A stretch of DNA of 64,000 nucleotides from positions 16,694 through 80,693 of the forward strand of contig DAOVZK010000005.1 in the NCBI GenBank assembly GCA_030635145.1. Direction: 5' to 3'. A model generated the notes under the pieces. It was not told the origin of the DNA and did not search any database. It worked only from the letters and a program-made list of their open reading frames with translations. The position numbers and the translations under genes were made by a program. Each line of letters begins with the position of its first letter. The first letter of the stretch is position 1. This DNA is from Planctomycetota bacterium (GTDB lineage Bacteria > Planctomycetota > Phycisphaerae > SM23-33). Shown here piece by piece: positions 1 through 26,567 of the stretch.

Positions 1-1152
1 TCGGTGTTGGAGGGCATGGTTATTGGTGCCTACGCTATCGGGGCCGACCGCGGTTATATTTACGTGCGGATGGAGTATCCGCTGGCGATTGAAAATCTTC
101 GAATCGCTATTGATCAGGCAACTCAGCGCGGGGTGTTGGGCGAGAACATACTCGGTAGCGATTTTAGCTTTAACGTGAAAATTTCGCGCGGGGCAGGGGC
201 GTTTGTCTGCGGCGAATCGACCGCACTGATGGCTTCTATCGAAGGGCTTACCGGCGAACCGCGTGCCAAGCATATCCACACCAGCGAAAAGGGCCTGTTC
301 GGTAAACCCACGAACCTCAACAACGTCGAAACCTGGGCTAACGTTCCGGTAATTATCGACAAGGGCGTCGAGTGGTACACGAGCATCGGCACGGAAAATT
401 CCAAAGGCACGAAGGTGTTTTCGCTTGTGGGTGCCATCAACAATACCGGGTTAGTCGAAGTGCCGATGGGCATTACGCTGCGGGAGATTATTTACGATAT
501 CGGCGGTGGGATTCCCAAGGGTCGTCCGTTTAAGGCTGTCCAAACCGGCGGGCCTTCCGGTGGATGCCTACCAGAAAACATGCTCGATTTACCGGTGGAT
601 TTCGATCAACTTACCGAGGTCGGGTCGATGATGGGCTCGGGCGGAATGATTGTGATGAACGACCACACATGCATGGTCGAAATCGCGCGGTACTTTACCG
701 ACTTTCTGCGGCGCGAGTCGTGCGGAAAATGCACACCCTGCCGCGAGGGCGTGCTGCGGATGTACGAAATTCTCGACAGCATCACAGCTGGGCGCGGAAA
801 GATGGAAGATATCGATCTGCTGGAGGAGATTTGCGGATACGTGCGGGACAACAGCATCTGTGGGTTAGGCAAGACCGCGGCGAATCCGACGCTCAGCACG
901 CTGCGATTTTTCCGCGATGAATACATCGCACACGTAAAAGACCACAAATGCCCCGCCGGGGTCTGCCAAGCACTGACAACATTCATCATCGACGAAAAAA
1001 CCTGCAAAGCATGCGGTGCCTGCCTCAAAGCATGCCCCGTTGAGGCAATTAGCGGCGGTGCGAAGAAAAAACCCGCGAAAATCGACCAGGACAAATGCAC
1101 CACCTGTGGCGCCTGCCGCGAGGCCTGCCTCTTTGATGCAATTATGACATAG
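1..1152 (+). CDS. NuoF-like NAD(P)H-binding flavoprotein subunit with a C-terminal 2x[4Fe-4S] ferredoxin domain (5' partial; probable electron-input module of a CODH, hydrogenase or formate dehydrogenase)
   Basis: The ORF runs off the window start. It carries NuoF/HoxF-type motifs (Gx[19 protein letters not shown]) and two CxxCxxCxxxCP ferredoxin motifs at the C-terminus. Confidence 0.8.
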
Positions 1153-1173
1153 ACGACAGTAACACAAGGAATT

Positions 1174-1407
1174 TTTAGACAGGATAACAAGATGAAAACT
1201 AAATCATGTTAATCCAAAAGAAAAAGAAGGTTCACCACAAAGAACACATAGATCGCAAAGAAAGATGTTTTTGCATGACGTTTTTCTTTTGCGTTCTCTT
1301 GCGGTGAATAATATTCGCTTACTGAAACCTGATTGCTGATAACTGAAAACTTAAAATAAATAACTATCCTGTGATCCTGTCAAAAAGATTCTTTTGATTA
1401 ACAGGAA
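1174..1407. repeat. Cluster of 'ATCCTGT'/'ACAGGAT' motifs (MITE-like element or operator array), copy 1
   Basis: Left end 'tttagacaggat' (1174-1186), right end 'ctatcctgtgatcctgtcaaaa' (1364-1385) and 'tgattaacagga' (1396-1407). The same motifs and an internal 'gatg(g)tgtttgca...ttttctttt' stretch recur at 26213-26377. Confidence 0.4.
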
Positions 1408-1426
1408 AAGGCCGTGAACAATCGAA

Positions 1427-2209
1427 ATGGACATGATAAAAACGACAATTGACGGGCGAGAAATAGAAGTTCAGCGAGACCGCTGGGCGCTGGAAGTCGC
1501 ACGCGAAATGGGTATAGAAATTCCAACGCTCTGCCATCACTCCGCCCTGGAACCCTACGGAGCCTGCCGCCTCTGCGTAGTTGAGGTTACCAAGGGTAAG
1601 TGGACGTGGTTAACGACGTCATGCGACTTGCCGATCCGCGAAGGGCTTACGATTCGCACCGACACACCCGCGGTAATCGCTGCCCGCAAGACGGCGTTGG
1701 AATTGATGCTAGCTCAGGCACCGGACGCCGAGGAAGTTCGCCAACTCGCCGAGCAGCTTGGCACGAAGTCCCCGCGATTCCCCGACCGCAATGAAAGCAA
1801 CGCGTGCATTTTGTGCGGATTGTGCGTGCGGGTGTGCAAGGTAGTGACGGGGAAGATGGCGATTTGCTTTTCCAATCGCGGTACAGACCGCAAAGTCGGT
1901 CCGCCGTTTGATCGCAGCTCCGACGAATGCATCGGGTGCAACGCTTGCGTGGACATCTGCCCGACGGGTTGCATCGAGTCGCGGGACGAAGCAGGGATTC
2001 GAAAAATTCCCATGCTTAAAACCGAGCTGAAATTGGCTGACTGCGAGGTCTGCGGAAAACCCTTCGCGCCGATCAGACAGCTGGAACATATGCAGGCTAA
2101 GCTCCGTGAAAAATTCGGAGACGATTTTGAGGCAGGGTGTATTTGCCCTGTGTGTAGACGAGAGCAAACGGCGGCGAGATTGCATAACGTCGCAGAAAAA
2201 ATTGGATGA
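1427..2209 (+). CDS. Fe-S protein with an N-terminal 2Fe-2S ferredoxin domain (NuoG/HndD N-terminal-like), two 4Fe-4S motifs and a C-terminal Cys-rich ribbon
   Basis: CHHSALEPYGACRLC 2Fe-2S motif; CILCGLCVRVC and CIGCNACVDICP 4Fe-4S motifs; CEVCGK...CICPVCRRE at the C-terminus. It lies between the NuoF-like gene and acsB. Confidence 0.7.
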   Translation: MDMIKTTIDGREIEVQRDRWALEVAREMGIEIPTLCHHSALEPYGACRLCVVEVTKGKWTWLTTSCDLPIREGLTIRTDTPAVIAARKTALELMLAQAPDAEEVRQLAEQLGTKSPRFPDRNESNACILCGLCVRVCKVVTGKMAICFSNRGTDRKVGPPFDRSSDECIGCNACVDICPTGCIESRDEAGIRKIPMLKTELKLADCEVCGKPFAPIRQLEHMQAKLREKFGDDFEAGCICPVCRREQTAARLHNVAEKIG

Positions 2210-2272
2210 ATTGATCTGACCGCTAAAAAGTGGTGAGATGTTGAAACAGTCTTTAGAATGGGAGACGCTGTT

Positions 2273-4453
2273 ATGTCACACGAGGTAATCTCGAGCGTTA
2301 TTCGCGGAGCAAACGTTTTCGTCGACGAGGCGGAGCAAAAATTGGCCGAGGCCATCAAAAGTAAGGGTGAGGATCATCCGGTGAGTTTTCCGGAGACGGC
2401 CTTTCAGTTACCGATGGTTCATGCATTGATGGGTCTTGAGGTTACGAAGGTCGGGCAGCTGAAAGATGTCGTCGCCCATGCCCGCGAGCTTGCTCCATCA
2501 CCACCGGCGGCAAAGTTATGGCTGCCGTACCTTGGCGACGGACTCGACGCCGGTATTGCGACGTTGCTGGCGCAGGAAGTTACGTGCGCACTGCGATATG
2601 TTAACGAAGAACCCATCGAGGAAGGGTTTACGGGATTTATTTCCGACACGATTCTTCGCGAGTTGGGCATTCAGTTAGTTGACGGGCGATTACCGGGCTT
2701 CGCCGCAATTCTCGGCCCTGCACCTACGGAAGAAATCGCCCTCAACACCATTCGCGAATTCCAGAAAAACAGCATCCTGACATTCATCCTCGCCAATCGC
2801 GACGGTGTGAGCATGCGCGACCAACTCGTCAAGCAGGGTGTCGAGCTGGGCTGGGACACTTATGTGGTACCGGTCGGCCGCGATACGCATTCGGCGATTT
2901 ATATTCTCGACTGGGCGATCCGCGGGGCACTTACGTTTGGCGGGCACAAAAAGGGCGACTGGGAATCCTGCCTGCGTTATTGCCGCGAGCGAATCTTCGC
3001 GTTCGGGCTGACGTTCGGCCCCATCCCCGACGACTGGTACGCCGTCGGCGCTGCCGCCATCGCCATGGGCTTCCCCGTAATTTCCGACCACGAATCTACC
3101 CCCGAAGTTCGCGCCACCGGCGTGACGACGTACGAAGCTCTCGTCCGCCAAACCGACCCCGAAAAACTCGTTGCCACCTGTATCGAGGTGCGCGGTGTGC
3201 AGGTCAAAATCGAAAACGTCGACATTCCGGTTTCGTACTCACCAGCCTTCGAGGGCGAACGCGTCCGCAAAGAAGACATGCAGGTGCAGTTCGGTGGGAA
3301 ATATTCCGGCGGCGTCGAGTTGCTCGAAACCGTTCCTGCAGACGATATCAACGACGGTGAAATTATCGTTAGCGGAAAAGATTTCGACGAAACCGAGGTC
3401 GGCGGCGTGCTCGATCTGGGAATTCTCGTGAAAGTCGCCGGGCGAAAAATGAAACAGGACTTCGAGGGAATTTTCGAGCGGCAGATGCACAGGTATCTCA
3501 ACGAAGCGATGGGGTTCATGCACACCGGCCAGCGGAATATGATCTGGTGCCGCGTCAGCAAAGCCGCCGTCGCCGCCGGGCTTCGATTAAAACACATTGG
3601 CACGATCGTCCACGCCAAAATTCACGACGAGTACGGCGGACTTGCCGAGAAAATTTCCGTTACCGTTACGACCGATCCCGACGAGGTCAAAAAGCTCGTC
3701 GAAAAAGCCCAGCCCGTCTACAGTGCCCGCGACGACCGCGTTGCTGGGATGACCGACGAATCAGTCGATACGTTTTATTCATGCACGCTCTGCCAGTCGT
3801 TTGCCCCGAACCATGTTTGCATGATCACCCCCGAACGCCTGGGTTTGTGCGGTGCGTATAACTGGCTGGACGGGCAGGCGGCGTACGAAATCAACCCCAC
3901 CGGATTCAATCAGCCGGTAACGAAGGGCAACTGCCTAAACGAGCGCACCGGCGAATGGGAAAACGTAAACAAATTTGTTTACGAGCATTCCAATCGCAGC
4001 ATCGAGCATTTCAGTGCGTATTCGCTGATGGAAAACCCGATGACGTCGTGCGGTTGCTTCGAGTGCATTTTGGCAATCGTGCCGGAGGCTAACGGCGTGA
4101 TGATCGTCAACCGCGAGTATCCCGGTGATACGCCGATTGGTATGCCGTTTTCCACATTGGCCGGTAGCGTTGGCGGCGGTGCGCAGACCCCGGGATTCCT
4201 TGGCGTCGGGCGATTGTATCTCACGAGCAAAAAATTCATCAGTGCCGAGGGCGGACTGAGTCGGCTGGTGTGGATGCCGAAGGAACTGAAGGAAAGTATG
4301 CGTGAGCGGTTGTCGCAGCGTGCAGATGAACTCGGGCTTGACGGGCTTGTCGACAAAATTGCCGACGACAGCACCGCGACGAGCTCCGAGGAGTTGCTGG
4401 AATATCTCGCAAAAGTCGAGCATCCGGCACTGGCGATGGAAGCAATGTTCTAA
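2273..4453 (+). CDS. acsB: CO-methylating acetyl-CoA synthase (ACS, A-cluster subunit) AcsB
   Basis: The 727-aa product is collinear with Moorella AcsB: HPVSFPETAFQLP, FEG..RKEDM, TFYSCTLCQSFAPNHVC, and the A-cluster motif SCGCFEC. The start at 2273 is chosen because a GGGAGA RBS sits 9 nt upstream; an alternative ATG lies at 2258. Confidence 0.9.
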   Translation: MSHEVISSVIRGANVFVDEAEQKLAEAIKSKGEDHPVSFPETAFQLPMVHALMGLEVTKVGQLKDVVAHARELAPSPPAAKLWLPYLGDGLDAGIATLLAQEVTCALRYVNEEPIEEGFTGFISDTILRELGIQLVDGRLPGFAAILGPAPTEEIALNTIREFQKNSILTFILANRDGVSMRDQLVKQGVELGWDTYVVPVGRDTHSAIYILDWAIRGALTFGGHKKGDWESCLRYCRERIFAFGLTFGPIPDDWYAVGAAAIAMGFPVISDHESTPEVRATGVTTYEALVRQTDPEKLVATCIEVRGVQVKIENVDIPVSYSPAFEGERVRKEDMQVQFGGKYSGGVELLETVPADDINDGEIIVSGKDFDETEVGGVLDLGILVKVAGRKMKQDFEGIFERQMHRYLNEAMGFMHTGQRNMIWCRVSKAAVAAGLRLKHIGTIVHAKIHDEYGGLAEKISVTVTTDPDEVKKLVEKAQPVYSARDDRVAGMTDESVDTFYSCTLCQSFAPNHVCMITPERLGLCGAYNWLDGQAAYEINPTGFNQPVTKGNCLNERTGEWENVNKFVYEHSNRSIEHFSAYSLMENPMTSCGCFECILAIVPEANGVMIVNREYPGDTPIGMPFSTLAGSVGGGAQTPGFLGVGRLYLTSKKFISAEGGLSRLVWMPKELKESMRERLSQRADELGLDGLVDKIADDSTATSSEELLEYLAKVEHPALAMEAMF

Positions 4454-4459
4454 TTAAGA

Positions 4460-4540
4460 AGGGACTAGGGAATAGGGACTGGGCACTAGAGCCTAATTCC
4501 TAACCTCTGATCCCTAGTCCCTAATTACAGGAGTTTTTTT
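4460..4540 (+). terminator. acsB-acsC intergenic 12-bp perfect inverted repeat (agggactaggga ... tccctagtccct) followed by a T7 run; candidate partial terminator or processing hairpin
   Basis: The arms lie at 4460-4471 and 4511-4522; the ttttttt run is at 4534-4540. Confidence 0.4.
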
Positions 4541-4617
4541 AAAAAACTATCAAGCGAGTTAGACGTTTAGCTTTTTAAGAATCATAAATCTTTAAATTTT
4601 AATATAGGAGTAAGGAG

Positions 4618-5961
4618 ATGGCACTGACAGGACTGGATATTTTCAAATCTCTTCCGAAGACGAATTGCAAGGAATGCGGCGTGCCGACATGTTTGGCGTT
4701 TGCGATGAAAGTCGCCAGCGGTCAGGCTGGGCTGGACGATTGTCCGAAGCTGACCGACGACGCCCGCTCGTCGCTAACCGAAGCCTCCGCACCCGCCCAG
4801 CGATTGGTGAAAATCGGCAGCGCCCCGCACTTAATCGAGATCGGGCAGGAAACGGTTCTGTACCGCCACGAAGAACGCTTCCATCATCCCACAGCTGTTG
4901 CGCTTACCATCAACGACACCATGAGCGAAGCGGATCTGACGCAGGCGTGCGAAAAATTCAAGGCGCTTTCGTTCCATCGCGTCGGAGAAACGCTTACCTC
5001 CGACATGGTCGCCCTGGTCAACGACTCCGGTTCGCCCGACAACATGCAAGCCGCCGCCGAAACCATCTACAACGCACTCGGAGTTCCGATGGTTCTGATG
5101 AGCGACTCGCCGAATACGCTCTCAACCGTCGCTATGGGGCCACTGTCTGGTGGTGCCGTGGTGCTGTACTGCACCGGCCCCGCCGAGGTCGTCGATCTTG
5201 TCGCCATGGTCAAAGACACCGACGCAAAACTTTGTGTTGACGGTACAATCGAATCCGTCGCCGGGCAGGTCGAGAAGCTAAACGAACTTGGGGTTAAGGA
5301 TATCCTTATTTCACCGGGTAAGGTGTCGGCGGGCGAGACGTTGGAGTTTCTGACCAAGTCGCGGCGAGGTACGCTTTTGAAAAAATTCCGCCAACTCGGT
5401 TGCCCCGTGCTGACGCTCGCGGTCGGAGACGATTCCGTGGCAGCTGCCCTCGATGCCTGTGCGTTTGTGTGCAAGTATTCCGGTATTGTGGTGTCCAACG
5501 CGTGGGAGGGGCACTTGCTGGCGCCGATTCTCACGACGCGACAGAACATTTACACCGACCCGCAGAAACCCGTGCAGGTTGAACCCAAAGTTTATGACGT
5601 CGGTGACGTGTCGGCTGACAGTCCGCTGCTGGTGACCACGAATTTCTCGCTGAGCTATTACTCCGTCGAGTCGGAAGTCGAAAGTGCCCGCGTACCGTGC
5701 CGCATAATCGCGGTCGATACTGAAGGCACGAGTGTTCTTACCGGCTGGGCGTCGGATAAGTTCAATCCCGAAACGATCACACAGGCGATGAAAACCGCGG
5801 GGGTCGATCAGTTGGTATCTCATCACAAGGTCGTTATTCCGGGTCACGTTGCGGTAATCGCGGCGCAGCTGGGGGAGGAATCGGGATGGAATGTTCTGGT
5901 CGGCCCGAAAGACGCGGGGGGCATAGGAGCGTATTTGAAAAACGACTGGAAGAATGTTTGA
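4618..5961 (+). CDS. acsC: Corrinoid iron-sulfur protein large subunit (CFeSP gamma) AcsC
   Basis: N-terminal CKECGVPTCLAFAMKVASG [4Fe-4S] motif, with a TIM-barrel remainder collinear with Moorella AcsC. An AGGAGTAAGGAG RBS precedes the start. Confidence 0.9.
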   Translation: MALTGLDIFKSLPKTNCKECGVPTCLAFAMKVASGQAGLDDCPKLTDDARSSLTEASAPAQRLVKIGSAPHLIEIGQETVLYRHEERFHHPTAVALTINDTMSEADLTQACEKFKALSFHRVGETLTSDMVALVNDSGSPDNMQAAAETIYNALGVPMVLMSDSPNTLSTVAMGPLSGGAVVLYCTGPAEVVDLVAMVKDTDAKLCVDGTIESVAGQVEKLNELGVKDILISPGKVSAGETLEFLTKSRRGTLLKKFRQLGCPVLTLAVGDDSVAAALDACAFVCKYSGIVVSNAWEGHLLAPILTTRQNIYTDPQKPVQVEPKVYDVGDVSADSPLLVTTNFSLSYYSVESEVESARVPCRIIAVDTEGTSVLTGWASDKFNPETITQAMKTAGVDQLVSHHKVVIPGHVAVIAAQLGEESGWNVLVGPKDAGGIGAYLKNDWKNV

Positions 5962-5994
5962 AATCAGGCAATAGGCAGTAGGGACCATGTATTA

Positions 5995-6063
5995 GTAGGG
6001 TCGGCCATTGCCGACCAATCCATTGACGGTATGCCTGAAAAGGTCGGCAGTGGCCGACCCTAC
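5995..6063. repeat. Twin hairpins (GGTCGGC-n4-GCCGACC, twice) nested inside a 12-bp perfect inverted repeat in the acsC-acsV spacer
   Basis: Hairpins at 5999-6016 and 6042-6059; the outer arms gtagggtcggcc and ggccgaccctac are exact reverse complements. Confidence 0.5.
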
Positions 6064-6080
6064 AAAACTTGGAAATTTTG

Positions 6081-8042
6081 ATGAGTAAAAAGTGCAAAGT
6101 ACATTTTGTTCCCGACGACATAACCGTCGAAGTGCCGGTGGGGTCTACATTGCTGGCTGCTGCCAACGCAGCTGGGGTTTACGTCAACAGTCTTTGCGGT
6201 GGGGACGGTGTCTGCGGGCGATGCCGCGTGATACTTCGCAGCGGAAAAACCACCGGTGAGTCGACGGAGTATTTCACCCACGACGAAATCCGCGCCGGAT
6301 ATATCCTTGCCTGCGAAGCCCGCGCAGAGTCGGACGTCGAAGTTGAAATCCCGCCCGAAACCCGCCAAACCCAAACTGCACCCGAGCACGAAAAACTCAA
6401 AAGCGAAGTTCCGCAACTAAAAGACCTTTCCCGGGGTGCGCAGCGGCAGATCAAACTCGCCCCGCTGATGCAGAAACACTACGTGGAGCTCCCGAAACCC
6501 ACGCTCGAAAATAACGTTTCCGATTTGCAGCGGTTAGAGCAGGAACTCCATAAAGTAGTCCCCGCCGAGGGTTTCCAGATGGGTCTGAAAGTTACGCGGC
6601 GATTACCGAAGATTCTTCGCGACGCTGATTGGAAACTCACCGCAATTACCGGGCATCGCGGGCCGTTGACGGAAATCGTTTCTGTCGAATCCGGCGACAC
6701 CCGCCGCCGCAACATGTGCATAGCAGTCGACATCGGAACGACCACCGTTGTCTGCCATCTCGTCGATCTTCGCGACGGGCAAACGCTCGGGCAGGAGGCG
6801 AAGTACAACTCGCAAGCCAACTACGGTGCCGACGTCATCCGGCGAATCATCCACGCCTCAACGCCCGACGGAGAAAAAGCCCTCCGCGAGGCGATTGTCG
6901 GTGACATTAACGAGCTGATTCACGGGCTTACGCGGCGGTATCATCTCACACAAAACGACATTTCGTTCATCTCGGCAGCGGGTAACACCACGATGCTGCA
7001 TCTGCTGCTGGGGTTACCGTCGGAGAACATTCGCAAGGAACCGTACGTCGGCGTGGCGTATCGGTTACCGGCGTTTCGGGCGGCTGAAATGGGGTTGCAC
7101 ATTAATCCGCGTGGGCTTTTGTATTGCCTCCCATGCGTTGCCGGTTTTGTCGGGGCCGACACCGTAAGCGGAATTTACGCTAGCGGAATGTGCACCAGCG
7201 ACGACGTGCGAATGCTCATCGACATCGGCACTAACGGAGAGATCGTCGTGGGCAACAAAGAATTTCTGGTTTGCGCCAGTGCGTCGGCGGGTCCGGCGTT
7301 TGAAGGTGCCGAGTGCAAATGCGGCATGCGAGCCACCGCCGGTGCCATAGACCATATCCGCCTGCACGACGCCGACCACGTGATGAGCTACTCGACCATT
7401 GGCTCGTCGCCGCCGTTGGGATTTTCCGGTACCGGATACGTAAACATGATCGCCGAAATGCTCCGCGCCGGTGTCATCGACAAAACCGGACGCATGAATC
7501 CCGACGCCTCGAAAACGCAGCTGCGAGAGAGCGAATTCGGCGAGCTGGAATATCTGGTGATACCGGCCGCCCAGACCGGCAACGGAAAAGATATTACCGT
7601 TTCGCAGGGTGACGTAAAAAACATTCTCCGCGCCAAGGCTGCCATTTACGCAGCTGCCACCGTTCTGCTACGTTCGCTTGATATGAGCTTCAGCGACCTG
7701 ACCGAAATCCTCGTGGCCGGTGCGTTTGGAAATTTCCTCAACGTCGACAACGCCGTCTGCATCGGCCTGCTGCCGGATATTTCGCCCGAGCGTCTGCGAT
7801 TTGTAGGTAACAGTTCGTTGGCGGGTGCGAAGTTGGCGGCGCTGTGTTGCGACTGCTACGACGAAATCTTCAATATCGCCGACCGCACCACCTACTTTGA
7901 ACTCAGCACGCAACCGGATTTCATGGACGAGTTCGTGTCGGCGAGTTTTTTTCCGCACACGAACACGGAATTATTCCCATCCGTAAATCTTTTTCCGAAA
8001 ATGCCGAAGATACCGAAAACACAATCCTCGCGAAAGGAATAG
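6081..8042 (+). CDS. Reductive activator of the corrinoid protein (RACo/AcsV-type; N-terminal 2Fe-2S ferredoxin plus ASKHA ATPase)
   Basis: N-terminal CGGDGVCGRCRV plant-type ferredoxin motif, then an approximately 600-aa body typical of the acs-cluster orf7/RACo proteins. The position between acsC and cooC is conserved in acs operons. Confidence 0.8.
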   Translation: MSKKCKVHFVPDDITVEVPVGSTLLAAANAAGVYVNSLCGGDGVCGRCRVILRSGKTTGESTEYFTHDEIRAGYILACEARAESDVEVEIPPETRQTQTAPEHEKLKSEVPQLKDLSRGAQRQIKLAPLMQKHYVELPKPTLENNVSDLQRLEQELHKVVPAEGFQMGLKVTRRLPKILRDADWKLTAITGHRGPLTEIVSVESGDTRRRNMCIAVDIGTTTVVCHLVDLRDGQTLGQEAKYNSQANYGADVIRRIIHASTPDGEKALREAIVGDINELIHGLTRRYHLTQNDISFISAAGNTTMLHLLLGLPSENIRKEPYVGVAYRLPAFRAAEMGLHINPRGLLYCLPCVAGFVGADTVSGIYASGMCTSDDVRMLIDIGTNGEIVVGNKEFLVCASASAGPAFEGAECKCGMRATAGAIDHIRLHDADHVMSYSTIGSSPPLGFSGTGYVNMIAEMLRAGVIDKTGRMNPDASKTQLRESEFGELEYLVIPAAQTGNGKDITVSQGDVKNILRAKAAIYAAATVLLRSLDMSFSDLTEILVAGAFGNFLNVDNAVCIGLLPDISPERLRFVGNSSLAGAKLAALCCDCYDEIFNIADRTTYFELSTQPDFMDEFVSASFFPHTNTELFPSVNLFPKMPKIPKTQSSRKE

Positions 8043-8045
8043 TTG

Positions 8046-8807
8046 ATGCCAGGAAAAATGATAGCGATGACTGGAAAGGGCGGGTCGGGTAAAACCACAC
8101 TCGCCAGTATGCTCATTCGCCAGCTGGTTCGCACAAAGCGAACCCCGGTGCTTGCTATCGATGCCGACCCCAACGCCACGCTCGGGCTGACGCTTGGTGT
8201 GGATGTCCCGTCGACGATTGGGGATCTTCGCGACCGCATGGGCGAGGCTGCTTTGGACGTAACAGAGATTCCCAAAGAGCGGTTAATGGATCAGTGGTTG
8301 AGCGACATACTTACCGAGGAAGTCGGGTTCGATTTACTTACGATGGGGCATCCCGAAGGGCCGAAGTGTTACTGCTACGTGAATAATCTGCTGCGACGCT
8401 ATCTGCAGATGCTTCGCGGGAATTATCCGTATGTGGTCGTCGACTGCGAGGCTGGGATGGAGCATCTTTCGCGACTGACGATTGACGATGTCGATACGCT
8501 TTTGATCGTCGCCGAGCCTACAGGGGTGGGAATGGCGACGGCGGCGCGGATTTCGAAGATCGTCGACACCCTGCCGCTCAAAGTTAACAACCGCATACTC
8601 GCGATCAACAAATCCGCTACCGATGAGCTACCCGACACCAGCAACATTGCCGCCGACAGCGTCATACGAATTCCGTTTGATAGCGACCTCGCCCAGCGAT
8701 CCGCCCGCGGTGAACCCGTCGACGACATCGCCGGTTGCGAAATGCGAGAAACCATAACCGAACTGCTGGATTTGTGCCTGAGGGCACCTCAAAACGCAAA
8801 CTCATAA
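8046..8807 (+). CDS. acsF: CooC/AcsF-type Ni-insertion ATPase (CODH/ACS maturation)
   Basis: MinD/ParA-type P-loop MTGKGGSGKTT and a CYCYVNN (CxC) metal motif. The start overlaps the RACo stop; an alternative start lies at 8058. Confidence 0.85.
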   Translation: MPGKMIAMTGKGGSGKTTLASMLIRQLVRTKRTPVLAIDADPNATLGLTLGVDVPSTIGDLRDRMGEAALDVTEIPKERLMDQWLSDILTEEVGFDLLTMGHPEGPKCYCYVNNLLRRYLQMLRGNYPYVVVDCEAGMEHLSRLTIDDVDTLLIVAEPTGVGMATAARISKIVDTLPLKVNNRILAINKSATDELPDTSNIAADSVIRIPFDSDLAQRSARGEPVDDIAGCEMRETITELLDLCLRAPQNANS

Positions 8808-8827
8808 CGAGCGAAGGAGATAACGAT

Positions 8828-9817
8828 ATGACAACTACTACAGATGTATCAATAGCGATCCCGGACGTTGCCGAAAAATGGGGCGGGGGGATTAACGAAG
8901 TTACGATTGGCGCGACGGCCGACAGCGGCGGGTCGCGTGGTAGCACCGTTACGATTGGCGGGAGCAAGGCCGTGCCGTTTATGAGCTTCGAAGGTTCGCT
9001 CGGTTGCAAACCTGCTATCGCCGTTGAGGTCTGGGACATTGCTCCCGACGCCTTGCCCCCCCAGCTGTCGGAAGCCTATGGAGATTCGCTGAACTCACCC
9101 GGGGCGTGGGCGAAAAAGGCTGTCGAGTTTGGGGCTGAGCTTATCTGCCTGCGACTGATGGGTGCACATCCCGACGTCGCCGACAAATCGCCCGACGACT
9201 GCGCCGCCGCCGTGAAAGAAGTCTTACAAGCCGTCGACGTGCCGCTGATTATCTGGGGGTGCGATGTCGACGAGAAGGATAACCAGATTCTTCCCGCGGT
9301 TTCGTCGGCTGCCAATGGCGAGAACTGCCTCATCGGTACCGCCAAGGAAAAAAATTACCGCACGCTGGTGGCGGTCTGCCTTGCCGACGGTCACAAATTA
9401 CTAGCCGAAAGCCCGCTGGACATCAACATCGCAAAACAGGTCAACATCCTCTGCAGCGACGCCGGGTACCCGCTGGAAAATATCGTGGTTTTTCCCACGA
9501 CCGGTGCGTTGGGATACGGAATCGAATACGTTTACAGCATTCAGGAACGCGGACGGTTGGCGGGGCTGAGCGGCGATAAGCAGCTGTCTCAACCCGTGCT
9601 GTGCAATGTGGGGTACGAGGCGTGGCGGGTGAAGGAGGCAAAGGATCCGCCGTTTGATTGCGTGACCGACGAAAATCGCGATCAGTGGGGCGTGATGTGG
9701 GAGGCATCGACTGGAGTGGTGCTGCTGCAGTCGGGTGTGGAACTGCTGGTGATGCGGCACCCCAAGGCGATCGAATACATCAACGAGGCTATCAAAAGAT
9801 TTTTGCCCGATAAATAG
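8828..9817 (+). CDS. acsD: Corrinoid iron-sulfur protein small subunit (CFeSP delta) AcsD
   Basis: Collinear with Moorella AcsD (GATKD/GATAD, FEG, GENCLIGTAKEKNY, PLDINI...QLNIL). A GAAGGAGA RBS precedes the ATG at 8828. The track ORF begins at 8735, inside the acsF/cooC coding region (8046-8807); that in-frame extension is rejected. Confidence 0.85.
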   Translation: MTTTTDVSIAIPDVAEKWGGGINEVTIGATADSGGSRGSTVTIGGSKAVPFMSFEGSLGCKPAIAVEVWDIAPDALPPQLSEAYGDSLNSPGAWAKKAVEFGAELICLRLMGAHPDVADKSPDDCAAAVKEVLQAVDVPLIIWGCDVDEKDNQILPAVSSAANGENCLIGTAKEKNYRTLVAVCLADGHKLLAESPLDINIAKQVNILCSDAGYPLENIVVFPTTGALGYGIEYVYSIQERGRLAGLSGDKQLSQPVLCNVGYEAWRVKEAKDPPFDCVTDENRDQWGVMWEASTGVVLLQSGVELLVMRHPKAIEYINEAIKRFLPDK

Positions 9818-9855
9818 AGTTAATTTCGCGGCATCAGAGGAAAGGATTTTGAAAA

Positions 9856-10644
9856 ATGTTCGTAATTGGAGAATGCATTAACGGAACGACTCCTGCTGTT
9901 AAGGAAGCGATTCAAAACAAGGACGCCGAGTTCTTTCGCGATCTTACGCGCCGACAAGAAGCCGCCGGTGCCAGCGCCATCGACGTAAACGTAGGCCCAG
10001 CTGTCAGCGACCGCAAGGCAGGACTGCTGTGGTTAGTCGAGGTCGTCCGCAGCGTTACCGATTTGCCGCTGTCGATCGACACGGCAAAATGGGACATCAT
10101 GAAAGAAGTCGTCCCGCAGGTTCCGGGTGAGATTGTAATCAATTCCACGAAGGCAGACCCCGAGCTGGTGAGTGACTACGTGGGGTTGGCTGTCGAGCAT
10201 AATGCACGGCTGATCGGGCTTACAATCGACGCCGACGGTGTGCCGAGCACGACGGAAAAACGCGTCGAGCTTGGTGCGCAGATTGTGGCGATGGCGATGG
10301 AAGGGGGGCTGGACATTGACCGCCTCTACATAGATACGATTATCCTGCCGGTGAATGTTTCGCCAAAAACTCCGCTGGTGTGCCTGTCGGCCATCTCGCA
10401 GATACGAATGTTTTCGGATCCGTCCCCGCACATGGTTTTAGGGTTGTCGAACGTTTCGCAGCGATGCAACAATCGCGGGTTGATCAACAGCACTTACCTG
10501 GCGATGGCGATGGGGCACGGCCTCGACGCGGCCATCATGGATCCGCTGGATACGGAACTCATGAACACCGTGATTACCGGCGACCTGCTGAAAGAAAAGA
10601 TGATCTATTGCGATTCGTATCTCGAAGCAGCGAGGGGCAGCTAA
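9856..10644 (+). CDS. acsE: Methyltetrahydrofolate:corrinoid/iron-sulfur protein methyltransferase AcsE
   Basis: 262 aa with a pterin-binding DHPS-like fold; MFVIGECINGT and DVNVGP motifs match MeTr. Confidence 0.85.
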   Translation: MFVIGECINGTTPAVKEAIQNKDAEFFRDLTRRQEAAGASAIDVNVGPAVSDRKAGLLWLVEVVRSVTDLPLSIDTAKWDIMKEVVPQVPGEIVINSTKADPELVSDYVGLAVEHNARLIGLTIDADGVPSTTEKRVELGAQIVAMAMEGGLDIDRLYIDTIILPVNVSPKTPLVCLSAISQIRMFSDPSPHMVLGLSNVSQRCNNRGLINSTYLAMAMGHGLDAAIMDPLDTELMNTVITGDLLKEKMIYCDSYLEAARGS

Positions 10645-10645
10645 G

Positions 10646-11275
10646 TTGCAACGCGACCCGCGAATTTCAATTCCCCCGTCACAAAACAACTACGCCGACG
10701 CGGTGCAGCACGCCGTTGCGCATTTGGGCGCTCAGGGTAGCTCTCAGCTGGAACTGTTGGGGGCCAAACCCAACGGAAATTTGTGGCAGCTGCCCGTCCT
10801 GAACGACACGTTTGATGTCGACACAAAAACCGGATGCGTGGGGGCAAGTTCGGGGCAGCCTGTGGGGTTGCCGTGGAGGATACTTACGTTGCATTATCTC
10901 GCAGTTCGCGGGAATGTCGAAAAGCAAATCCCGTCGGTAGGGTTTGCGGATATTTCGGCTGGGCGGAGTTATGCGGGGGTTTACAAAGCTCGCGTGATTT
11001 CGCGATTGTGTGCAACAGTCGGCCGCACCGCCGAAACCCTGTGCTCCGCCGCTGACAATATTGGTGGGGTTGCGATCGAAGATTCAGACCTCGGATACGA
11101 CTTTGATATTTTTCCGCAAATCACCCTTCGCCTGCTATGGTACGCCCCGGACGACGAGTTTCCGGCGTCTGCGTCGCTTTTATTGCCGAAAAATATTTTG
11201 TCATTTTTCAGCGTGGAGGATACAGTTGTACTTTCGGAATCGTTGATCGCCCGATTGTCGGGTAAAGATTTTTGA
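10646..11275 (+). CDS. Conserved hypothetical protein in the acs operon (possibly DUF3786-like)
   Basis: 209-aa ORF with a TTG start 1 nt after the acsE stop. No recognisable catalytic motif; its operon position is the only functional clue. Confidence 0.45.
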   Translation: MQRDPRISIPPSQNNYADAVQHAVAHLGAQGSSQLELLGAKPNGNLWQLPVLNDTFDVDTKTGCVGASSGQPVGLPWRILTLHYLAVRGNVEKQIPSVGFADISAGRSYAGVYKARVISRLCATVGRTAETLCSAADNIGGVAIEDSDLGYDFDIFPQITLRLLWYAPDDEFPASASLLLPKNILSFFSVEDTVVLSESLIARLSGKDF

Positions 11276-11313
11276 GCGAAACTTTCAACTGTGCTCAGTT
11301 ACAGGATAAATGT

Positions 11314-12408
11314 ATGAAACCTTTATTTATAGCCGGTACCCAGAGAGATGTAGGAAAAACCACACTTTCGGTGGGGTTGTTGCGGGCATTTCAGGATCGT
11401 GGCCTACGCGTTGCCTACGCCAAGCCGCTCGGGCAGCGAATCAATACGATTGAAGGGCAGGAATTGCACGACGATGCACTGGTAGTGTCGAAAATTATCG
11501 GGCAGGAGAAATCCGAACAAGCTGCGATGGTCATCGGGCTTGGTAAAGGCCGCGTCGAAAAAGAAATCTTCGACATGAAAACTCCGCAGCTCGTCGAAAA
11601 AGTGCGGAAGTTATGTGCCCGGTTAGAGCAGGAATATGACGCCGTTATCATTGAAGGAATGGGCCACGTCGCCATGGGGTCTTGCCTCGGACTTTCCTGT
11701 GCCGACACCGCCCGCGTCGCCGGTGCCAAGGCGCTGCTGGTTTCACCCGGTGGTATCGGAAGTACGATCGACGAAATTGCGCTGTGCTCGACGTTTATCA
11801 AGTCTCGCGGTGTGGAATTTCTCGGTGCCATCATCAACAAGGTGTGGGCAGAAAAATACGACCGGATCGATGCCGCCACCCGCAAGGGCCTGGACAACAT
11901 TGGAATCACGTCGTTCGGTACGGTTCCGTATGACGAGTCGATGGCGTGTCCGACGATGCGGCAGGTTGTGGAACTGATGGGCGGTGAGCTGGTTGCGGGC
12001 AAGGATCATCTGGATAACGTCGTGAAAAATACCATCGTTGCGGCGATGGAGGCACGCCATATGATTCGATACCTCAAGGAGGGCACGCTCATGATAACCC
12101 CCGGCGACCGGGCCGACAACGTGCTGGCTGCGATGGGCGCGAATCAGCTTGGGGATGCCTGCTCTCCTACGCTGTCGGGCTTGCTGCTTACGGGCGGTTT
12201 TCGCCCGGATGGCGTGTGTATGCGACTGATAAAAGAGTCCAATCTCCCCGTGATTCTCGTTAAAGGTGACACCTACGCCGCCGCCAGCCGCTTCCGTCAA
12301 AAAACGTTCAAAATCGAACCGTCCGACGAAGAAAAAATCGCCTCGGCTGTCGAACTCGTCGCCAAATACGTTGACGTCGACACCATCTTAAAAAGTCTTG
12401 CTGAATAG
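11314..12408 (+). CDS. Stand-alone phosphotransacetylase-N-terminal-like protein: BioD/CobQ-type AAA P-loop domain plus DRTGG domain, with no PTA_PTB catalytic domain
   Basis: MKPLFIAGTQRDVGKTT P-loop at the N-terminus; LMITPGDRADNVLAA matches the DRTGG motif. An alternative TTG start at 11272 overlaps the upstream stop (TTGA). Confidence 0.7.
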   Translation: MKPLFIAGTQRDVGKTTLSVGLLRAFQDRGLRVAYAKPLGQRINTIEGQELHDDALVVSKIIGQEKSEQAAMVIGLGKGRVEKEIFDMKTPQLVEKVRKLCARLEQEYDAVIIEGMGHVAMGSCLGLSCADTARVAGAKALLVSPGGIGSTIDEIALCSTFIKSRGVEFLGAIINKVWAEKYDRIDAATRKGLDNIGITSFGTVPYDESMACPTMRQVVELMGGELVAGKDHLDNVVKNTIVAAMEARHMIRYLKEGTLMITPGDRADNVLAAMGANQLGDACSPTLSGLLLTGGFRPDGVCMRLIKESNLPVILVKGDTYAAASRFRQKTFKIEPSDEEKIASAVELVAKYVDVDTILKSLAE

Positions 12409-12507
12409 CATCTTCCGCGTATCGCACTCATATCTCTAACAGGGGGGGGTAAAATGTCTCTGAATACGTGTTTTTGTAAAATTTTGTGAAGTTTTTCCCT
12501 CTATTTC

Positions 12508-12535
12508 TTGACATCTCGCCTACAGCCTGTATTAT
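12508..12535 (+). promoter_or_regulatory. Candidate sigma70-type promoter TTGACA-N16-TATTAT upstream of the FNT gene
   Basis: ttgacatctcgcctacagcctgtattat. It is followed by a tandem AACCTTAA(A)CTT repeat at 12538-12561 in the leader. Confidence 0.4.
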
Positions 12536-12579
12536 CTCCAACCTTAAACTTTAACCTTAACTTGTCAGGAGACAAAAAA

Positions 12580-13422
12580 ATGCCCAGTGTAAATTCATAT
12601 CACCCGAGTCTGAGTCACAAAGACGCAACCAAAACGATTGCCAAGCTGGGGGTCGATAAGGTCAAGCCCAAAGCTTGGCAGCTATTCCTGTTGGGAATTT
12701 TGGCTGGGTTGTACATTGGTTTTGGCGGGCAGCTGTTTATGGTTACCGTAGCTGCCGGAGCTGGTACTATACTGGCAGGGCTTGCTAAGGTTTTTGGTGC
12801 GATGCTGTTTAGCGTTGGACTTATTCTGGTCGTCGTTGCCGGAGCAGAACTGTTTACTGGTAACGTTGCAATTATTATCGGTGTCATGGGTGGTATTGTC
12901 ACCAAACGCCGTATGCTGAAAAACTGGGTTGTCGTTTACATCGGTAACTTTGTGGGATCGGTTATTTTTGCAGTGTTAATGGCCAAATCCGGGTTGTTTG
13001 GAGGCACTGATGCTCTCAATGCCCTGGGTGAGCTTGCAAGTAAAATTGCCGCTGCGAAAATCAGCATACCGTTCTGGGAGGCGTTTATCAGGGGCATTTT
13101 CTGTAACATGCTTGTTATCCTGGCGATTGTTATGGCGATTATATCGAAGGATGTTATTTCCAAAATCTTCTGCATCGTTTTCCCCATCACCTGCTTTGTA
13201 GCCTGCGGGTTCGAGCACTGCGTCGCCAATATGTACCTCATTACGGTTGGTATGCTGGTTGACGGAACACCACTCTGGGAAACTTATCCCATGTTTACCA
13301 ATCTGATTCCGGTAACACTGGGTAATATCGCTGGTGGGCTGGCGATTTTGCTGATTCACCCTAACAGAATCAGGCAGATCAGCGTCCTGCTGAAAAAGAC
13401 CCACAACGCTAACGCGAAATAG
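12580..13422 (+). CDS. Formate/nitrite transporter (FNT) family channel, FocA-like
   Basis: Six-TM FNT fold with the conserved FCIVFPITCFVACGFEHCVANM region. A GGAGA RBS precedes the ATG at 12580. Confidence 0.85.
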   Translation: MPSVNSYHPSLSHKDATKTIAKLGVDKVKPKAWQLFLLGILAGLYIGFGGQLFMVTVAAGAGTILAGLAKVFGAMLFSVGLILVVVAGAELFTGNVAIIIGVMGGIVTKRRMLKNWVVVYIGNFVGSVIFAVLMAKSGLFGGTDALNALGELASKIAAAKISIPFWEAFIRGIFCNMLVILAIVMAIISKDVISKIFCIVFPITCFVACGFEHCVANMYLITVGMLVDGTPLWETYPMFTNLIPVTLGNIAGGLAILLIHPNRIRQISVLLKKTHNANAK

Positions 13423-24999: not shown

Positions 25000-26187
25000 A
25001 TGTATTCTAATATGCTAGAACATTTCTGCAAGCAAAATCATTCGCAAGTTTCCCGCAGCGTCGGAGCGTTATACGTTCACGTGCCGTTTTGCGTGCGCAA
25101 ATGTCGATATTGCGATTTTTATTCGCAGACCGACGGCCAGGCTGCAAAGCAGCGATACGTGGCCGCTGCCATCGGCGAGCTGAAACTTAAAGGCGACGTT
25201 CTGGCAGCCCCGGCGGCGAGCATTTTTGTCGGTGGGGGGACCCCGACATCACTGGAACCTGATCTGCTGGACGAACTTTTGGCCCAGCTGCACCGCTACG
25301 CCGATGGAGAGACAGAGTTTACCGTCGAGGCCAACCCCGGAACAATCGACACCGCGACCGCCGACGTGCTGGTGCGAAATGGGGTTAATCGTGTTTCGCT
25401 GGGCGTGCAGAGTTTTGATGCGAAGTTGCTGGATGTGCTGGGGCGGATTCATACTCCGCAGCAAACGCACGAGGCGTTGCGGATTTTGCGTGGCGCGGGG
25501 GTTGGCAATATTTCGCTCGATCTGATTTACGGCATCCCGGGGCAGAGCCTGGAGATGTGGTCGCGTGACCTCGACGAAGCCCTCGCAGCCGACACCGAAC
25601 ATCTCAGTGCCTACGCCCTGAGTTTCGAGGAAAACACCCCGCTGTGGGATGATCTCGAGGCCGACCGTGTCTCGCCCGTAAATGACGAGCTTCAGCGGGC
25701 GATGTACTATCATCTGATCGAGACCACCGCCAGCAGGGGGCTTGAGCAGTATGAGATTTCCAATTTCGCAAGGGCGGGGAGACGGTGCAAGCATAATATC
25801 ACGTACTGGTTAAACAAGGGATATCTCGGGGTCGGCCCGGCCGCGGCTAGCTACATAGGCGGGCGGCGCAGCGTCAATGCCCCCGACTTGCAGGATTATC
25901 TCGAGCGAATCGAAGCAGGAACGCCGCCGCAAGCCGAGTGCGAGCAATTGGTCGGCCGATCTGAAATGGGCGAAACCCTGATGCTGCAGCTGCGTTTAAC
26001 TGAAGGTGTAAAGATTGCTTCGTTCACCAAGCGTTTTGCGGTTAGTCCCACGGAGGCCTTCCCGCGAAGCATCGGCCGATATTTGCAGTCGGGAGCGTTG
26101 GTGGAAACAAAAACGCATATTCGTTTGAGCAGGGAGCATTTTTTTACCGCTGATACGGTATTGGCGGATATATTGGCGGAAGTCTGA
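25000..26187 (+). CDS. hemW: Radical SAM heme chaperone HemW (coproporphyrinogen III oxidase-like)
   Basis: HVPFCVRKCRYCDF radical-SAM CxxxCxxC motif with a HemN-like C-terminal domain. Confidence 0.85.
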   Translation: MYSNMLEHFCKQNHSQVSRSVGALYVHVPFCVRKCRYCDFYSQTDGQAAKQRYVAAAIGELKLKGDVLAAPAASIFVGGGTPTSLEPDLLDELLAQLHRYADGETEFTVEANPGTIDTATADVLVRNGVNRVSLGVQSFDAKLLDVLGRIHTPQQTHEALRILRGAGVGNISLDLIYGIPGQSLEMWSRDLDEALAADTEHLSAYALSFEENTPLWDDLEADRVSPVNDELQRAMYYHLIETTASRGLEQYEISNFARAGRRCKHNITYWLNKGYLGVGPAAASYIGGRRSVNAPDLQDYLERIEAGTPPQAECEQLVGRSEMGETLMLQLRLTEGVKIASFTKRFAVSPTEAFPRSIGRYLQSGALVETKTHIRLSREHFFTADTVLADILAEV

Positions 26188-26212
26188 TTTATTGTAACCA
26201 TTTACGCAAAAA

Positions 26213-26377
26213 TTTAGACAGGATCACAGGATAGAATATAGGCCTAAAAAATCCTGTTAATCAGGATTAATTTTCATAGCAACTTGTATTCGTTGCGATG
26301 GTGTTTGCAATTAAGAGAGCTTATATTCTGCTTTTCTTTTTAATAATTCGTGGCTAATCCTGTAATCCTGTCAAAAG
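26213..26377. repeat. Cluster of 'ATCCTGT'/'ACAGGAT' motifs (MITE-like element or operator array), copy 2
   Basis: tttagacaggatcacaggatag (26213-26234), the palindrome atcctgTTAATcaggat (26251-26267), and ctaatcctgtaatcctgtcaaaag (26354-26377). Shares motifs and internal sequence with 1174-1407. Confidence 0.4.
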
Positions 26378-26567
26378 AGGACTTTTTAATAAAAATTGGA
26401 TTTACAAGATAAAAAGCGGGAACGGTTACAATCTGTTGAGCCGCCGCCGAAAAAAAATACTGATTATGGCTAAAAGAACCGATACAAAACTAGAGCATCT
26501 CAATTTTTCAATGCTCTAGAAGTCGTTACAAAACCTTAGACTTGACTTATCTTCATGGGAGATTAAT

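Follow-up and report, generated by a model that had tools for sequence, protein, structure and literature searches.

Two gene-less intergenic elements in a Phycisphaerae genome as probable members of a widespread palindromic cassette family with GxxExxY (PDDEXK_3) genes

The window analysed here is a stretch of 64,000 nucleotides (64 kb) from a metagenome-assembled genome (MAG) of Phycisphaerae (Planctomycetota; assembly GCA_030635145.1, contig DAOVZK010000005.1, positions 16,694 to 80,693). Two of its intergenic regions are occupied by short non-coding elements carrying inverted arrays of the heptad ATCCTGT: element 1 (~269 bp) lies between a NuoF-like gene and a Fer2 gene ahead of the carbon monoxide dehydrogenase/acetyl-CoA synthase (CODH/ACS) genes, and element 2 (~242 bp) between a HemN/HemW-like and a TlpA-like gene. 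A sequence-only reading of the window had offered two explanations for the shared motifs, either a non-autonomous mobile element resembling a miniature inverted-repeat transposable element (MITE), or a shared operator for the CODH/ACS and thiol-redox genes. In the feature list below, "cassette" denotes the longer form of such elements, which encloses a gene for a GxxExxY protein and of which the window elements are probable derivatives.

4..1152, + strand: NuoF-like flavoprotein/4Fe-4S subunit gene (Pfam NADH_4Fe-4S and Complex1_51K), flanking, outside element 1
1156..1424 (approx.), no strand: element 1, probable gene-less derivative of a GxxExxY-type cassette, filling the NuoF-like/Fer2 junction
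1156-1165 and 1414-1424: outer termini of element 1, ACAGTAACAC and GTGAACAATCG, like the termini of element 2
1172..1193, + strand: left end of element 1, TTTTTA followed by GACAGGAT-A-ACAAGAT, the heptad array in reverse-complement form
1201..1215, + strand: leader box of element 1, AAATCATGTTAATCC, a conserved 5'-leader motif of full-length cassettes
1366..1386, + strand: right end of element 1, ATCCTGT-G-ATCCTGTC followed by AAAAA
1392..1406, + strand: TTTTGATTAACAGGA, outside the right array of element 1, read from the sequence as a degenerate extra left-end piece or a reversed leader box
1427..2209, + strand: 2Fe-2S/4Fe-4S protein (Fer2) gene, flanking, outside element 1; first gene before CODH/ACS
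26191..26432 (approx.), no strand: element 2, probable gene-less GxxExxY-type derivative between the HemN/HemW-like and TlpA-like genes
26191-26207 and 26416-26432: outer inverted repeat of element 2, ATTGTAACCATTTACGC and GCGGGAACGGTTACAAT, 17 nt, 82% complementary
26213..26232, + strand: left end of element 2, TTTA followed by GACAGGAT-C-ACAGGAT
26250..26268, + strand: leader box of element 2, AATCCTGTTAATCAGGATT, a small hairpin
26357..26376, + strand: right end of element 2, ATCCTGT-A-ATCCTGTC followed by AAAA
26398..26410, + strand: GGATTTACAAGAT, read from the sequence as an additional, incomplete heptad pair of the left type, placed after the right array and before the outer terminus of element 2

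With up to two mismatches allowed, ATCCTGTRATCCTGTC occurs at four sites in the window, 1178-1193 (-), 1366-1381 (+), 26217-26232 (-) and 26357-26372 (+), and at no other; 100 shuffled sequences gave no match, and the clusters found by a degenerate heptad scan of the window were confined to the regions of elements 1 and 2. The four sites form two inverted pairs with the arrays facing outwards, the arms being 31 nt long and 77% complementary in element 1 (1163-1193/1366-1396), and 20 nt long and 90% complementary in element 2 (26213-26232/26357-26376). The common motif cluster and the imperfect inverted repeats described by the sequence-only reading were thus confirmed, as was its palindromic site cctgttaatcagg, which is real at 26250-26268 and has its counterpart AAATCATGTTAATCC at 1201-1215 and a reverse copy at 1392-1406. 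The size of 165-210 bp that it gave proved too small, since the outer inverted termini (consensus of both elements ATTGT(A/T)(A/C)C) extend the elements to about 1156-1424 and 26191-26432. An internal alignment that it had also reported (gatgtttttgca...ttttctttt) was no better than chance: the two regions align poorly over their whole length, and by local alignment their interiors share above chance solely the box AAATC[A/C]TGTTAATC (score 23, against 16.3 +/- 2.6 for shuffled interiors, 13 of 500 of which reach 23).

Element 1 begins 3 nt after the stop codon of the NuoF-like gene, in a gap of 274 nt before the 2Fe-2S/4Fe-4S gene. The same junction measures only 16, 5, 25, -4 and 14 nt in five relatives (78, 75, 72, 65 and 61% identity, respectively), in which the C-terminus of the upstream gene product is clearly orthologous to that of the window. 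Because the junction is so short in all five, element 1 is, by this comparison, an insertion into a tightly coupled gene junction, and its limits at about 1156-1424 leave approximately 5 nt of original spacer. Element 2 likewise starts 3 nt past the stop codon of the HemN/HemW-like gene; no strain-level empty site was found for it, the other assemblies being either identical or broken inside the element. Breaks in assemblies were seen at both elements, as expected of repeats: a public assembly (GCA_023138805.1, contig JAGLOU010000003.1) starts exactly at window position 1172, and a Logan contig of the same organism starts at 26288, within element 2.

A genome scan for ATCCTGTNATCCTGTCWAAA, with one genome per species, returned at least 118 loci, against about nine chance matches by our estimate under uniform base composition. 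The loci among the matches listed belong to Desulfobacterota, Planctomycetota, Verrucomicrobiota/Kiritimatiellia/Lentisphaerota, Nitrospirota, Nitrospinota, Acidobacteriota, Bacteroidota (including the isolate Spirosoma fluviale), Zixibacteria and FCPU426, with further loci in the archaeon Methanoperedens; in all, more than 10 phyla are represented, and the window genome is not among the matches listed. Stacking 175 occurrences gave ATCyTGT-NN-ATCCTGT-N-ATCCTGTC-WAAA(A), that is, a third heptad upstream, with no conservation outside the triple-heptad array and WAAA(A), and the heptads forming a direct repeat with a fixed period of 8-9 nt. Among the matches listed, the arrays are nearly all intergenic and lie toward gene 5' ends (75) as often as toward 3' ends (72); the co-directional, divergent and convergent classes are occupied as in the background, convergent pairs accounting for 13% against 18%. 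This dispersed placement, facing 5' and 3' ends alike, points to a repeat element rather than an operator. The arrays usually occur as inverted pairs, from 6 to ~600 nt apart. Only five elements of the motif-selected set are gene-sized; the others are short hairpins (32), mid-size elements (27) and solo arrays (82). Copies with the gene are outnumbered by gene-less ones about 10 to 1. Two copies lie within the 64 kb of the window, and other MAGs hold multiple dispersed copies per genome.

When all open reading frames (ORFs) of the motif-selected loci were clustered to find recurrent neighbours, the sole recurrent enclosed gene was an ORF of ~125 aa located between the inverted arrays; the other recurrent cluster, a generic ABC-transporter ATPase, was located away from them. 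The enclosed product is a GxxExxY protein (Pfam PF13366 PDDEXK_3, 7.8e-41; NCBIfam TIGR04256, 1.2e-41). All array pairs whose interior reaches 390 nt or more enclose this gene, no other cargo was seen, and no transposase was found between or next to the arrays at ~200 loci. Some mid-size elements retain truncated remnants of the gene (residues 1-56 in L082, residues 92-123 in L004) and others have nothing recognisable inside; the shorter copies are internal-deletion derivatives of a gene-carrying cassette. A complete cassette reads (outer inverted terminus)-TTTWG-ACAGGAT-n-ACAGGAT-nn-ACAnGAT, leader box and ~125-aa GxxExxY gene, followed by ATCnTGT-nn-ATCCTGT-n-ATCCTGTC-WAAA-(outer inverted terminus). 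Both window elements carry the inverted arrays of at least two ATCCTGT heptads, with a period of 8-9 nt and ending in GTC-WAAA, as well as the leader box ATCC(A/T)GTTAATCA inside the left array, where their boxes align with the ATAAATCCAGTTAATCAAAA that follows the left array of full cassettes. Neither encloses a GxxExxY ORF, and they are therefore derivatives and not complete members; no coding remnant of the gene was detected in either, even with the HMMER filters off.

The association also holds in the reverse direction. At 80 metagenome loci picked solely by similarity to the GxxExxY protein (58-80% identity), the 250 nt upstream of the gene contained ACAGGAT 164 times in the expected and 23 times in the opposite orientation, and the 150 nt downstream contained ATCCTGT 157 and 47 times, respectively, whereas 199 kb of background at distances above 400 nt had 74 heptads when both orientations were counted; the enrichment near the genes is ~25-fold. 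At least two heptads were present upstream in 53 of 76 loci and downstream in 56 of 74, and divergent members carry ACAAGAT/ATCTTGT in place of ACAGGAT/ATCCTGT. The GxxExxY gene and the heptad arrays thus go together, tested in both directions.

The GxxExxY protein has a Cas4/RecB-like nuclease fold of the PD-(D/E)XK type, with D67, E77-x-K79 and Q91 invariant and Y95 nearly so, a pattern which we take to be the RecB/Cas4-type catalytic signature of PD-(D/E)XK enzymes; a sequence search for a solved structure of the protein gave no match. The family is very large, comprising 21,410 clusters at 50% identity (E <= 1e-3), and one clade takes in 7,971 of the 8,000 scored candidates at E <= 1e-10; many members are located on very short contigs. 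Several representatives (P0241-P0248, P0280 and P0323) are 250-270 aa long with two tandem GxxExxY domains, and could be either fused adjacent cassettes or true two-domain proteins. PDDEXK_3 has been listed as of unknown function with many inter-domain transfers (PMC3424549). In openly searchable papers, heptad arrays around GxxExxY genes were not found described and the motif strings appeared in none; under its names GxxExxY, PDDEXK_3, PF13366 and TIGR04256 the family was mentioned only in passing or as "function unknown", and nothing relevant was found on repeats in Planctomycetes. The cassette family is apparently an undescribed, nuclease-associated one.

A second clade of GxxExxY proteins, 43% identical and reached through a representative search and a third homologue search (L212-L216), has the same layout with another repeat, ATCCGTG. 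Its inverted arrays are ACACGGAT/ATCCGTGT, with ACACGGATGA... upstream and ...ATCCGTGTTC downstream of the gene, enclosed by the outer inverted repeat AAACCTTTGGAAC/GGCAGTAAACCTTTGGAAC. On this evidence the array layout is common to the family and its repeat differs from one protein clade to the other, which argues that protein and repeats belong together. In four taxa the cassette of this clade is located between two BPD_transp_2 (livH/livM-type) permease genes, an insertion site that recurs across genera.

Both window elements fold into long stems closed by the heptad arrays, element 1 as one long hairpin (folding free energy -55.8 kcal/mol, z -4.5) and element 2 as one hairpin with its outer ends paired (-67.7 kcal/mol, z -4.4). 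In 40 of 62 cases, against 25.7 expected from composition, the base separating two heptads in one arm is complementary to that in the other arm, and the outer WAAA flank displays no such covariation. Searches for a conventional role of these stems and motifs led to several candidates that were rejected. A general promoter role was set aside, as TTGACA (-35-like) is present in 47% of ends and a properly spaced -10 box accompanies only 14% of ends; no promoter reading through or out of element 1 was found in a scan of its region, and the scan of the second region gave, besides a site at the start codon downstream, no more than a weak match on the minus strand (26260-26233), neither reading through or out of element 2. 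Intrinsic terminators consist of a G+C-rich stem and a subsequent U-tract; here T-rich sequence precedes the stem and A-rich sequence follows it (TTTW...WAAA), which is the reverse of that polarity, and a terminator scan did not report the long heptad-array stem. The RNA form ACAGGAU resembles the CsrA consensus; CsrA-type sites, together with PhoB boxes, were dropped because the motif is on both strands in equal arrays with a period of 8-9 nt, and, to our knowledge, some taxa with the motif lack CsrA. Rfam at the gathering score found only three tRNAs in the whole window, no match to element 1 at E<0.2 and none to ten related loci, and a phage origin was not indicated, with only six motif matches and no GxxExxY relative in viral contigs.

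Further arrangements were seen around the arrays in other genomes. At three loci gene-less units are arranged in tandem (L003:1-640, from a Deltaproteobacteria MAG; L043:1-760; L096:4700-5100), in the order right array, ~40-nt spacer, left array, ~100-nt interior: in L003, six units of 112 bp immediately precede a 2-oxoacid:ferredoxin oxidoreductase-like gene, while L043 and L096 have units of ~187 bp, those of L096 adjoining a GxxExxY gene. The sequence at 1392-1406 of the window, lying outside the right array of element 1, has a comparable layout of right end, short spacer and new left end. A module TAACCCGGACAAGCCGGAA(CC), or its reverse complement, is located just outside the heptad arrays at L002:5820-5850, L051:2840-2870, L045:3020-3050 and in the downstream flank of L172, in MAGs of different phyla (FCPU426, Nitrospirota), and may be a further end component in some subfamilies.

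At one special insertion site, represented by four metagenome loci (L127, L129, L142 and L153), the GxxExxY cassette is located between a gene ending in ...NGYALHCKRVS* and rpsP, and is flanked by a direct duplication of 15-16 nt (AAACGNGTTYCGTGA) whose lineage-specific variants are common to both copies in the four organisms. The right copy is the left arm of a hairpin upstream of rpsP. This hints at insertion into a specific site, with a long duplication that sets it apart from the other elements and is not a general pattern.

Other features of the window lie outside the elements. Positions 1427-13400 hold the CODH/ACS cluster (CdhC, CdhD), with the NuoF-like and 2Fe-2S subunits ahead of it, in a gene order that recurs in several relatives. 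Just before element 2, the HemN/HemW-like gene carries at its 3' end two exact direct copies, 12 nt apart, of the 10-nt sequence TATTGGCGGA (26159-26180). The stretch from element 2 to the TlpA-like gene contains a perfect 10-bp stem, CTAGAGCATC...GATGCTCTAG (CTAGAGCATCTCAATTTTTCAATGCTCTAG; 26498-26527), which may be a native regulatory or terminator hairpin.

Taken together, we consider it likely that each of the two window segments is a non-autonomous copy, devoid of the gene, from a widespread palindromic cassette family, similar to MITEs and to REPINs (hairpin-forming doublets of repetitive extragenic palindromic, REP, sequences), whose movement would be driven by the cassette nuclease. 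How the elements move we infer as follows. The heptads would be recognition sites where the Cas4/RecB-like cassette nuclease acts on the element ends, the enzyme being supplied in trans to gene-less copies; its substrate would probably be a hairpin or cruciform formed by the inverted arrays, and through this action the element would be copied into further intergenic sites with no duplication of the target, much as REPINs depend on RAYT (REP-associated tyrosine transposase). Putative recognition of the heptads by the nuclease is favoured indirectly because the repeat co-varies with the protein clade, because the inter-heptad spacer base co-varies between the arms and WAAA does not, and because gene-less copies alike over ~140 nt occur at different loci of one MAG. 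The window elements are passengers, not markers of a common regulon. Most likely element 1 is transcribed within its operon, where it would form a stem of ~25-40 bp between the NuoF-like and the Fer2/CODH-ACS genes.

Several observations weigh against this explanation. In 62 elements, neither a longest-common-substring nor a fixed-offset k-mer test revealed a target-site duplication, whatever the offset or k, except in tandem arrays and at the rpsP site, and none was found at the window copies either. No transposition event or strain-level presence/absence polymorphism was observed, the relatives with an empty site at element 1 are only 61-78% identical at the protein level, and no GxxExxY gene lies within the 64-kb window. 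Since their interiors share almost nothing, neither of elements 1 and 2 is, to judge by alignment, a recent copy of the other. Outside this genome, as seen in one MAG, some copies clearly arose by decay of a cassette where it stood, so that the lack of a gene need not imply movement in gene-less form, and we know of no PD-(D/E)XK nuclease that acts as a sole transposase.

The shared operator of the sequence-only reading, in which a host transcription factor on the ATCCTGT repeats co-regulates the CODH/ACS operon and TlpA-type thiol-redox genes, is contradicted by the data and rejected, and we give it next to no probability. Both window copies are indeed upstream of + strand operons, and the direct repeats resemble response-regulator sites; the same arrays, however, adjoin unrelated genes in more than 10 phyla, with the parity of 5' and 3' ends and the near-background convergent placement given above, and the five relatives have no room for such a site at the orthologous acs-linked junction (-4 to 25 nt). 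In addition, the 8-9 nt period misfits helical phasing and in each window copy a second, mirror-image array points towards the end of the gene upstream. The MITE alternative fared better in its general form: the elements are non-coding, bounded by inverted repeats and part of a dispersed family with longer, gene-carrying members, and element 1 is absent in five relatives, yet target-site duplications are lacking and the parent encodes a PD-(D/E)XK nuclease and no recognised transposase. In its classical form, the elements would be deletion derivatives of an ordinary insertion sequence (IS); a known transposase, DDE or other, would bind their subterminal heptads and move them in trans, with GxxExxY as passenger cargo. 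This appears improbable, even though terminal inverted repeats with multi-copy subterminal repeats recall the ends of Tn7, Mu and IS21 and the elements are small, intergenic and multi-copy: GxxExxY is the only recurrent enclosed gene, no transposase accompanies the arrays, duplications are missing at every tested offset, and a repeat that changes with the GxxExxY clade is predicted for a cognate protein rather than for cargo.

A further explanation places the cassette at the RNA level. The inverted arrays would pair in the transcript, and the stem would let a promoterless GxxExxY gene be cut from, or insulated in, the host mRNA (for instance by RNase III), as with the ORFs in 23S rRNA intervening sequences; the window copies would have lost the gene in place, their stems now only processing or stabilising the host mRNA. 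The long array-closed stems of both elements and the spacer-base complementarity between the arms agree with it, as do the cassettes located inside operons (the livH/livM-type pair; the NuoF-like/Fer2 junction in the window), the decay in place in one MAG and the scarcity of matched -10 boxes (14% of ends), by which many cassettes may lack a promoter of their own. A stem alone, however, leaves unexplained the near-invariant heptad across phyla, the fixed direct-repeat period and the arrival of elements at new sites, and partnerless solo arrays are common (82). We regard this explanation as unlikely on its own; it is compatible with nuclease-driven movement and not exclusive of it, and is therefore only a partial rival.

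For this genome, a tempting but false regulatory link between CODH/ACS and thiol-redox genes is removed, and the long spacer in the acs-linked operon is accounted for as an inserted repeat at which public assemblies break. More broadly, the very large "GxxExxY protein" family is tied to a concrete DNA context across phyla, with clade-specific inverted repeat arrays and many gene-less derivatives, which turns "function unknown" into a first testable idea, that of a nuclease recognising its own flanking repeats and driving a REPIN/MITE-like element. Wide horizontal spread is also indicated, by the near-identity of the heptads in Planctomycetota, Verrucomicrobiota, Desulfobacterota, Nitrospirota, Acidobacteriota, Bacteroidota and Methanoperedens. 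We tentatively propose, at somewhat less than even chances, that the GxxExxY/PDDEXK_3 proteins (~21,000 clusters) are the nucleases of an unrecognised class of selfish palindromic elements, in which each clade would have its own inverted direct-repeat arrays (ATCCTGT, ATCCGTG and others), and which would colonise intergenic and intra-operon sites with no target duplication, give rise to REPIN-like copies lacking the gene, such as the two in the window, and have crossed between more than 10 bacterial phyla and archaea. If true, a PD-(D/E)XK-based system would join the short list of bacterial palindromic repeat systems.

Compared with known systems, the elements behave like REPIN-RAYT and MITEs yet fail the defining tests of both, because there is no HUH/Y1 transposase gene, target duplication or recognised transposase. 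With REP/REPIN-RAYT they share short intergenic palindromic repeats, mostly inverted doublets able to form a hairpin, the many gene-less copies per gene-carrying copy, the absence of target-site duplication, and a small nuclease-type gene itself flanked by inverted repeats. They differ in that the cassette protein has a PD-(D/E)XK (Cas4/RecB-like) fold, whereas RAYT is an IS200-like HUH/Y1 transposase; the cassette repeat is a direct heptad array and not a GTAG-containing stem-loop; and the cassette gene occurs in many copies and clades with a repeat near-identical across phyla, whereas REPs are lineage-specific. Like the bacterial MITEs (Correia/NEMIS, ERIC, RUP, Nezha), the gene-less elements are non-coding and hairpin-forming, measure 100-300 bp, have terminal inverted repeats, occupy intergenic or intra-operon sites where they are co-transcribed, and arise by internal deletion of a gene-carrying element; unlike them, they lack target-site duplications, derive from a parent without a recognised transposase, and end in tandem heptads.

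The ends of Tn7, Mu and IS21 also carry several direct copies of a short, protein-binding motif in inverted arrays on both sides, and TnsA illustrates that a PD-(D/E)XK nuclease can take part in transposition, but the cassette has no TnsB-like DDE partner, 5-bp duplication or TGT...ACA termini, and the unit is only ~0.5 kb. Homing endonuclease genes and the ORFs in 23S rRNA intervening sequences resemble it as small selfish nuclease genes in compact units within transcribed regions, with pairing flanks; the cassette, however, has no defined intron, intein or rRNA host site, and dispersed gene-less copies are not a feature of homing endonucleases. For the GxxExxY family itself (TIGR04256/PF13366 PDDEXK_3), no flanking repeat system was found described in the openly searchable literature, whereas the cassette gene is a clear member of that family.
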